A stretch of DNA of 10,233 bases, taken from the NCBI GenBank assembly GCA_038231455.1, contig JBBRLI010000046.1:1-10233 (forward strand). Direction: 5' to 3'. The DNA comes from Vulcanimicrobiales bacterium. Its GTDB lineage: Bacteria; Vulcanimicrobiota; Vulcanimicrobiia; Vulcanimicrobiales; Vulcanimicrobiaceae. Made by a program: the position numbers and the translations under genes. Below, piece after piece: positions 9,995 through 10,233 of this stretch (the stretch's first letter is position 1; every line of letters starts with the position of its first letter). The notes beneath the pieces were generated by a model, which was given only the letters and a program-made list of their open reading frames with translations, was not told where the DNA came from and ran no database searches.

Positions 9995-10095
9995 CTATGC
10001 CCCTCGGTCGATAAAGCAAAGTTTTGGAGAACGGCAGCGCCCTTGCTCCAGCTTTGCTATCGCTATTTCCGAGGGTCGTAGTCCGAGTTAGGGGC
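9995..10095 (+). promoter_or_regulatory. Structured 5' leader of rpoC (candidate cis-regulatory RNA) including the Shine-Dalgarno-like AGGGG
   Basis: Nested complementary segments CTATG/CGTAG, CCCTCGG/CCGAGGG, CGATA/TATCG, GCAAAG/CTTTGC and TGGAG/CTCCA form one long imperfect hairpin over 9995-10081. AGGGGC lies at 10090-10095. Confidence 0.55.
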
Positions 10096-10105
10096 AAAAT
10101 TCAGC

Positions 10106-10233
10106 GTGAATCTTCTCGACGTTAATAACTTTGATGCGATGCGCATCGGCCTGGCGAGCCCGGAGCAAATCCGCGCCTGGTCCTTCGGCGAAGTCAAAAA
10201 GCCGGAAACCATCAATTATCGCACGCTCAAGCC
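10106..10233 (+). CDS. rpoC: DNA-directed RNA polymerase subunit beta' (N-terminal 42 codons, truncated by the window end)
   Basis: GTG 10106 opens [42 protein letters not shown], the conserved RpoC N-terminus, with AGGGG upstream. Too short to appear in the ORF track. Confidence 0.97.

Follow-up and report, generated by a model that had tools for sequence, protein, structure and literature searches.

What is the function of the long, structured leader of rpoC in a genome where this gene has become separated from rpoB? The window, by which we mean the whole stretch of DNA analyzed (10,233 nt), is the entire contig G000:C46 of a metagenome-assembled genome (MAG) of 3.7 Mb in 106 contigs. It ends only 42 codons into rpoC (10106–10233, + strand, with a GTG start at 10106), and the remainder of the gene lies on contig C19. 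A sequence-only reading of the window had proposed that the rpoC leader is an RNA switch, in which a long hairpin alternates with pairing to the Shine–Dalgarno (SD) sequence. Our analysis points to a different answer. We propose, with a probability of roughly 0.5, that the leader is a near-leaderless attenuator based on a very short open reading frame (mini-ORF), and that it is present on both halves of a split rpoBC. We put at about even odds the related proposal that the long hairpin represents the fold adopted, when no ribosome is bound, by a leader common to rpoC and the unlinked rpoB in one Eremiobacterota order. We infer where transcription starts, that the mini-ORF is translated, that termination occurs and in which direction regulation acts, as well as the step affected, which may be termination, the stability of the mRNA or the accessibility of the rpoC ribosome-binding site (RBS).

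The hairpin of the rpoC leader is real. Its outermost helix joins CTATG (9995–9999) to CGTAG (10077–10081) with one U-G pair, and the stem continues inward through CCCTCGG (10001–10007) with CCGAGGG (10069–10075), CGATA (10009–10013) with TATCG (10058–10062), GCAAAG (10016–10021) with CTTTGC (10052–10057), and TGGAG (10025–10029) with CTCCA (10046–10050). Each of these helices had been given in the sequence-only reading, and all of its coordinates match. The hairpin is the minimum free energy (MFE) structure found by RNAfold, at −45.2 kcal/mol compared with −35.0 ± 3.3 kcal/mol for shuffled sequences (z −3.07; 1/200 shuffles as good). In the partition function its pairs have probabilities of 0.78–1.0, except for two terminal pairs: the outermost C9995–G10081 pair (0.42) and one end pair of the CGATA/TATCG helix (0.28). 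The hairpin had also been said to begin at the predicted 5′ end of the transcript, and the promoter agrees with this placement. A sigma-70-type promoter occupies 9960–9988 (+), with a −35 box TTGACG (9960–9965), a 17-nt spacer, an upstream TG (9980–9981) and a −10 box TAAACT (9983–9988). It implies a canonical start at ∼9995, 7 nt past the −10 box. The promoter scan upstream of the leader gave this one site, where 0.4 are expected.

The sequence-only reading did not mention that the 5′ arm of the hairpin can be read as an ORF of five codons, ATG CCC CTC GGT CGA TAA (MPLGR*; 9997–10014, +), whose translation we predict. The leader of rpoB in the same genome has a counterpart, ATG TCC CTC GGT TTG TAG (MSLGL*). 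Relatives supplied 74 distinct motif-bearing leaders, of which 41 precede rpoB and are all of an ATG type, whereas those before rpoC comprise 16 of ATG type and 17 of GTG type. The stop lies at codon 6 in 49/57 ATG-type leaders (TAA in 33, TAG in 11 and TGA in 5) and at codon 5 in four. When stop triplets are counted by offset, the maximum is at +15 (49/57), and no other offset from +3 to +44 has more than 7/57. An in-frame stop was never included in any search pattern. The mini-ORFs would yield 35 different peptides with the pattern M-P/S-x-G/A-x. Because the stop is fixed in frame while the stop codon and the intervening codons change, this pattern is a signature of a reading frame. We read the 5′ arm as a conserved five-codon ORF, presumably translated, whose position and length have been kept.

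A different interpretation is that the conserved 5′ motif and the hairpin work at the level of RNA or DNA, without translation, and that the mini-ORF is a by-product of constraints on hairpin loops. Such an element could be a 5′ stem–loop that counters 5′-end-dependent decay, or a site for RNA polymerase, for a sigma- or Nus-type factor, or for another regulatory protein. The 5′ end in the window is base-paired from about nt 1–2, and pairing from the first nucleotide is typical of stabilizing 5′ stem–loops. In addition, rpoB leaders form a 3-bp hairpin around the stop codon, with the stop in the loop. This small stem includes one covarying pair (GC in 18 sequences, CG in 7), 85% of its cells are paired, and 2/500 shuffles score as high. 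We nevertheless consider an untranslated element unlikely, since a loop constraint would hardly keep only the three stop triplets, and never TGG, at 15 nt past an invariant ATG in 49/57 leaders while the codons between ATG and stop vary freely.

The promoter geometry puts the predicted start 0–2 nt ahead of the mini-ORF AUG. An invariant CT (9995–9996, +), whose first position is the canonical predicted start, lies between the −10 region and the ATG. This CT was fixed in the search patterns, and it was also found in rpoC leaders that had been gathered purely by homology of the rpoC coding sequence. Two further promoter elements, the TTGAC of the −35 box and a GTG ahead of the −10 box, are conserved among the 57 ATG-type leaders, and the search pattern specified neither of them. 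A scan of 6209 candidate long ORFs of this genome, each taken from its first ATG or GTG, revealed a peak of TANNNT boxes 12 nt upstream of the start codon, with 80 occurrences compared with ∼28 at neighboring offsets. This signal suggests that the genome has a sizeable set of leaderless genes.

Downstream from the mini-ORF, most relatives carry a hairpin that resembles a terminator. A hairpin followed by at least 5 U in 8 nt was observed in 41/46 ATG-type leaders, and its free energy is −12 kcal/mol or lower in 38 of those 41 compared with 69/230 shuffles, although the background of the scan is high, with some match in 145/230 shuffles. The basal stems vary by lineage (CGAG/CUCG, CGAC/GUCG or GCGAGG/CCUUGC) and the hairpin itself is retained. 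The U tract of relatives has the recurring form UUUUNGCGUGC. The distance from stop codon to hairpin is 0–10 nt in rpoC leaders and mostly 11–19 nt in rpoB leaders. RNAalifold, applied to a MAFFT alignment of 16 class-I rpoC leaders, returned only a 3-pair helix without covariation. Because the stems vary too much to be aligned by sequence, per-sequence folds were used.

The corresponding parts can be recognized in the window. The inner hairpin (10016–10057, +), composed of the GCAAAG/CTTTGC lower stem, the TGGAG/CTCCA upper stem and a GGC/GCC tip, is in register with the terminator-like hairpins of relatives (alignment A1), and it begins at 10016, just past the mini-ORF stop, which ends at 10014. 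A U-rich run, GCTTTGCTATCGCTATTT (10051–10068, +), is located where relatives have their U tract (consensus TTTGCnTTTTGC). This run differs among strains, both in the congeneric genome G001 and in metagenome variants at 10062–10064, yet it remains U-rich. It had been asserted earlier that the structure is not a terminator. With regard to the window this agrees with the standard scan, which the U-rich run fails, but the assertion does not extend to the homologous hairpins, which are followed by a U tract in 41/46 leaders of relatives.

If the mini-ORF is translated, these features could operate together in the following manner. The leader would open at the AUG of the five-codon ORF or 2 nt before it. 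A 70S ribosome would load on this 5′-terminal AUG and would sit on the mini-ORF or its stop codon, where it would keep the 5′ arm single-stranded and cover the base of the hairpin. RNA polymerase would then be less prone to pause or terminate early at the U-rich run and would continue into rpoC. If no ribosome is present, the entire hairpin would form and cause a pause or termination at this run, while the mini-ORF would pair with the 3′ arm of the outer helix (TATCG ... CCGAGGG. CGTAG, 10058–10081, +) and its AUG would be buried. The computed energies can be compared with these two states. The nascent RNA up to 10062 folds with −23.2 kcal/mol, or with −10.0 kcal/mol when the first 30 nt are blocked, as they would be by a ribosome, and the duplex between the first 20 nt and 10058–10081 has −21.6 kcal/mol (z −2.82). 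No separate antiterminator structure was found in the leaders; in the window, the footprint of the ribosome would reach directly into the base of the hairpin. Because both genes carry the same device, the output of β and β′ would be expected to track the same signal, namely free translating ribosomes.

Several observations weigh against this mechanism. The gap between the −10 box and the ATG is 8 nt at rpoC, whereas it is 6 nt for the leaderless genes of the genome. Therefore, either the RNA has a 2-nt leader (CU) or its start is unusually far downstream, nine positions past the −10 box. Nearly all ATG-type leaders have CCC as codon 2 (a few have TCC) without synonymous variation, which points to a constraint at the nucleotide level alongside, or in place of, coding. 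Furthermore, the 17 GTG-type rpoC leaders keep CTGTGCCCC, with ORFs that range from 5 to 66 codons by the position of their stop and that fall in all three frames relative to the conserved hairpin of these leaders. The GTG-type leaders are thus without a conserved short ORF, and the motif is kept even in its absence. Both the invariant CCC and the persistence of the motif in GTG-type leaders count in favor of an untranslated element. The leaders also come from related genomes, and the counts given above represent non-independent events.

The terminator component has difficulties of the same kind, apart from the scan background given above. The window run that follows CTCCA, GCUUUGCUAUCG, has 5 U in 12 nt, less dense than the 5 or more U in 8 nt of canonical terminators, and the standard scan of the window lists only a hairpin at 9833–9855. 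The same scan missed the bulged hairpin in the leader of the genome's own rpoB, and the fold of this rpoB leader as a whole is unremarkable (z −0.83). In rpoB leaders generally, a gap of 11–19 nt puts the hairpin at the limit of what a terminating ribosome would cover, or past it, and therefore blocking by a ribosome fits rpoC better than rpoB. Finally, the 35 peptides have in common only the M, a P or S in second place and a G or A in fourth, and they contain no candidate regulatory codon.

The GTG-type leaders have a feature of their own. In the window's family (f1), roughly one in two rpoC leaders is of this type. These leaders are without a short ORF and a terminator, and instead carry a highly conserved motif of ∼50 nt, GC-R-ACGGUGGG ... 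CUUACGUGACNACGUGAG ... CCCUGCGU-MR-GC, which is absent from the window. An alignment of 21 sequences (A2; for example L027:1663-1725(-), L035:1408-1470(+) and L040:221-285(-)) has 22 invariant columns. The consensus fold of this motif has 13 pairs, two of which show a compensatory change, both from one sequence, and the motif has no Rfam match.

The outer helix, which would hide the AUG in the absence of a ribosome, was examined as a feature of the family. In MFE folds, the first 20 nt are paired to a distal 3′ segment in 15/15 class-I rpoC leaders, in 15/19 GTG-type leaders and in 26/38 rpoB leaders, of which three (from the sister family f2) are to be disregarded since their lengths were mis-set (the rpoB match began at residue 52). 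Pairing of the 5′ end exceeds that of shuffles in each leader class; the mean number of paired nucleotides is 12.7 in class-I rpoC and 9.3 in rpoB leaders, compared with 4.8 and 5.1 in shuffles. These MFE pairings in the class-I rpoC and rpoB leaders are also what an untranslated 5′ structure would show. In contrast, the duplex energy of the 5′ arm is mostly unexceptional (z below −2 in 5/31 leaders; median z −0.04). Pairing of the C-rich 5′ end with the 60 nt nearest the RBS has a mean energy of −10.14 kcal/mol in rpoB and rpoC leaders and of −10.17 kcal/mol in 600 other genes of the genome (p 0.54). The long-range pairing is therefore no better than the natural RBS background and is insignificant in energy in most leaders, which speaks against the untranslated element as well. 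In G001 the outer helix is retained through one G-C to G-U change, and the metagenome variant 10078 G>C disrupts its U-G pair. We conclude that the outer helix is real in the window's genus, and we claim it for that genus only.

The same results bear on the switch put forward in the sequence-only reading, in which the 5′ arm would pair either with 10058–10081, leaving the SD free (ON), or with 10083–10095 (OFF), possibly under the control of RNase III or polymerase subunits. Both pairings are indeed present in the sequence. The second partner consists of another CCGAG (10083–10087) and the AGGGGC SD (10090–10095; + strand), and a fold in which GCCCCT is forced to pair with AGGGGC is only 2.1 kcal/mol above the MFE. 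The near-duplicate CCGAG and G-rich segments are kept in G001, and in several relatives the MFE partner of the 5′ end finishes 0–20 nt before the SD. The alternation itself is not supported. The anti-SD pairing has a probability of ∼0.02, the hairpin partner is transcribed first, the 10083–10095 segment is identical in G001 only and the duplicated partner is missing from relatives of other genera, and, as shown above, the C-rich 5′ end pairs equally well with the RBS regions of unrelated genes. Moreover, the switch leaves the conserved ATG, the fixed stop and the U tracts unexplained. We regard it as quite improbable.

Evidence for the attenuator proposal also comes from rpoB. This gene is located mid-contig on C9, with an open frame of 1303 aa and its own promoter and terminator, between a divergent ArsR-type regulator gene upstream and a convergent glycosyltransferase gene downstream. 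The split of rpoB and rpoC in this genome is real, as the sequence-only reading had assumed in treating rpoB as separately transcribed, and in G001 the two genes lie 37 kb apart on one contig. The motif precedes rpoB of the window's genome (C9:108363-108386) with an identical −35 box, a 17-nt spacer and an 8-nt gap between −10 box and ATG. The rpoB and rpoC leaders of the window's genome and G001 form a gapless alignment in which 38/74 columns are invariant, all spacings are the same and the stop is in the same frame position. From these alignments the two promoters appear clearly paralogous. When the genome was searched with the pattern (a −10 box, 6 nt, then CTATGYCC...), only two matches were obtained, before rpoB and before rpoC, and the reversed control gave 0.

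The pattern is also common in relatives. Upstream regions of rpoC were gathered from 60 relatives, and those of f1 are not alignable overall. A few unpublished genomes are counted in this collection and in the pattern searches of f1 and of the phylum. Within them, CTRTGCCCC is found 6 nt past a TANNNT box and 100–235 nt before the start codon in 26/28 f1 leaders. A pattern search of 61 f1 genomes gave matches in 49. Among 30 matches with flanking loci, 18 are before rpoB, 9 before rpoC and 3 chance-like, and the 27 are situated 77–230 nt upstream; 16 of 18 further matches likewise precede rpoB or rpoC. Across the phylum (251 genomes), the pattern occurs in 123/160 f1 genomes and in 3/3 genomes of f2. 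The 13 matches examined elsewhere in the phylum (L185–L197) were rejected as chance, being without a −35 box and without rpoB or rpoC nearby and having random-looking ORF lengths. On sequence grounds, then, these searches show the putative element to be restricted to rpoB and rpoC, and both genes probably share a leader for ribosome-sensing control. The element common to both genes also fits the earlier idea that the leader could balance β′ against β.

This distribution can be used to judge whether the leader has any regulatory role. A GC-rich leader might fold by chance, and the motif might be simply a strong promoter with its initial transcribed sequence that has been duplicated. GC-rich leaders do generally fold well, the rpoB leader fold is unremarkable, and the paralogy of the promoters is what a duplication would leave. 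This explanation seems to us very unlikely, given the z of the window hairpin and the retention of motif, stop position and hairpin over ∼70 genera-level lineages while the flanks diverge beyond alignment, which argues for selection. A DNA operator for a neighboring regulator was considered and rejected, since the neighbor of rpoB is an ArsR-type helix–turn–helix gene, that of rpoC is a PAS/GAF/SpoIIE gene, and none is shared. The absence of a common neighboring regulator gene, and of a palindrome or repeat typical of operators, also reduces the chance that the motif is an untranslated protein site.

The arrangement of rpoB and rpoC differs between families. The end of rpoB lies 120–440 nt before rpoC at 4/4 loci in f2 and 14/14 loci in f3, whereas 10/11 loci in f1 have no rpoB within 1.5 kb of rpoC. 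In f2, the element occurs only before rpoB of the adjacent rpoBC pair. A tentative scenario, which we think more doubtful than the attenuator itself, is that the promoter and leader of rpoB were copied to rpoC when the operon split. The dedicated ribosome-sensing attenuator, made of a 5′-terminal pentapeptide ORF and a leaky terminator, would then set the synthesis of both subunits in parallel according to how many translating ribosomes are available, and would take the place of the ancestral connection between rpoBC and ribosomal-protein operons.

Two sets of loci in relatives deserve mention. At L198–L200 (G037–G039), where rpoBC is intact, the f2 mini-ORF reads MPPG*. PPG is a strong stalling motif that depends on elongation factor P (EF-P), and the f2 peptide hints at sensing of proline or of EF-P-dependent elongation. 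In G011 (L033, G011:C32:18871-21997; also L168), an ATG-type leader and ∼19 codons of the rpoC 5′ end are followed by a run of N. Beyond it, the sequence resumes with the 3′ end of rpoB and continues through a GTG-type leader, which has a terminator-like hairpin, into full rpoC. The arrangement is either a scaffolding or masking artifact, or an intermediate in which adjacent rpoB and rpoC are split by an internal promoter and leader.

Because the window ends within rpoC, the continuity of leader and gene was checked. Contig C19 shares 141 nt with the window in an overlap that starts at 10093, inside the SD. This overlap at the contig ends indicates a break in the assembly graph, probably a fork caused by strain variation, and the join was therefore examined in three other sources. 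The congeneric G001 has leader and rpoC mid-contig at 94% identity, a 4129-nt contig of metagenome run X1 (possibly the source sample) covers 9700–10233, and a contig from the independent run X2 covers 9972–10233. Four runs were compared with the window in the form of contigs, which makes them usable only for contiguity and strain variants. Such variants are seen at 9989, 10015, 10062–10064, 10078 and 10099. In one related strain, an identical leader from 9987 onward is fused to another −35/−10 region. The closest named relatives by best rpoC matches are Eremiobacterota MAGs, with 94–96% identity over 450 aa.

The remainder of the window encodes an HD_5 (HD-GYP-type) protein (3–857, +), an M1 aminopeptidase (987–3644, +), an alpha/beta hydrolase (3734–4354, +), an M61 glycyl aminopeptidase (4351–6261, −), a 2OG-Fe(II) oxygenase (6288–6881, +) and a PAS/GAF/SpoIIE phosphatase (6878–9727, −). 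Since this last gene, immediately upstream of rpoC, is on the minus strand, rpoC has its own divergent promoter region. The divergent intergenic region also contains the terminator-like hairpin with a T run at 9833–9855 (+) and, immediately upstream of the rpoC −35 box, two nested inverted repeats within 9915–9958 (GACGCC...GGCGTC and CGTCTCG...CGAGACG). The G001 sequence is unrelated in this region. The hairpin and repeats possibly represent a small transcript, an insulator or an operator.

The balance of β and β′, and the coordination of polymerase with ribosomes, are understood mainly from the E. coli rplKAJL-rpoBC cluster. If the mini-ORF is translated, then co-regulation would have been kept after an operon split by duplication of a cis-element, and polymerase synthesis would be gated by ribosome loading. 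In that case, the capacity for translation would feed directly into the capacity for transcription. The work also adds two unannotated leader motifs, the mini-ORF leader and the 50-nt rpoC hairpin, for a phylum with almost no experimental genetics, and the very sharp sequence signature could help to locate transcription starts in such MAGs.

The proposal of an undescribed cis element in the rpoC leader is borne out by its retention in relatives and by the searches for known elements. Using cmscan with all 4227 Rfam 15 models, rpoB-associated models included, we obtained 0 matches up to E = 10 in 9400–10233. In 20 related loci, Rfam models matched none of the leaders, and three weak matches elsewhere fell below the gathering threshold. 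The portions of the literature covered by our search describe no mini-ORF or attenuator leader of rpoB or rpoC, in Eremiobacterota or elsewhere.

One of the closest known systems is E. coli rplKAJL-rpoBC, which has an attenuator before rpoB and post-transcriptional feedback on β and β′. The two resemble each other in having a partial terminator, here a candidate one, upstream of a gene for a large polymerase subunit. The E. coli genes are transcribed as one rpoBC message, which comes from ribosomal-protein promoters and has a single attenuator. In contrast, rpoB and rpoC in the window's genome are monocistronic and unlinked to rplJL, and each has its own promoter and leader. Thermales-rpoB is a cis-regulatory motif of Rfam found upstream of a polymerase gene. 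This motif and Lacto-rpoB, which the sequence-only reading had cited, share with our leader a structured RNA before a polymerase gene, but neither gives an Rfam match here.

Leaderless short-ORF attenuators of mycobacteria were reportedly described by Canestrari et al. in 2020. Both these and attenuators that combine an upstream ORF with a terminator occur in mycobacteria (PMC13236596). Leader-peptide attenuators, such as those of trp and pyrBI and that of mycobacterial ilvB1 (PMC13236596), are like the rpoB and rpoC leaders in that a hairpin and a U tract come after a short leader ORF, in our case a putative one, and in the proposed model, as in these systems, the position of a ribosome on the ORF would choose the RNA structure. 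They differ in that the rpoB/rpoC ORF has only five codons and no run of regulatory codons, is at or 2 nt from the predicted 5′ end without an SD, and is accompanied by no clear antiterminator alternative. The targets are also core subunits of RNA polymerase rather than biosynthetic enzymes, and copies are present on two unlinked genes.

According to a study in E. coli, 5′-terminal AUGs on SD-led mRNAs bind 70S ribosomes and can influence the downstream gene (PMC4965119). These mRNAs and the mycobacterial leaderless attenuators share with our leaders a 5′-terminal AUG, predicted in our case, upstream of an SD-led gene. The mycobacterial and E. coli examples, to the extent that these sources describe them, are Cys-rich sensors or have no known function, whereas the rpoB/rpoC peptide is M-P-x-G/A-x with a fixed length. 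Compared with the leaderless genes of its own genome, the mini-ORF has the −10 spacing of 8 nt, not 6 nt. The predicted rpoB/rpoC leader thus appears distinct from known attenuators in its fixed length of five codons, its lack of regulatory codons, its target genes and its presence as two unlinked copies.

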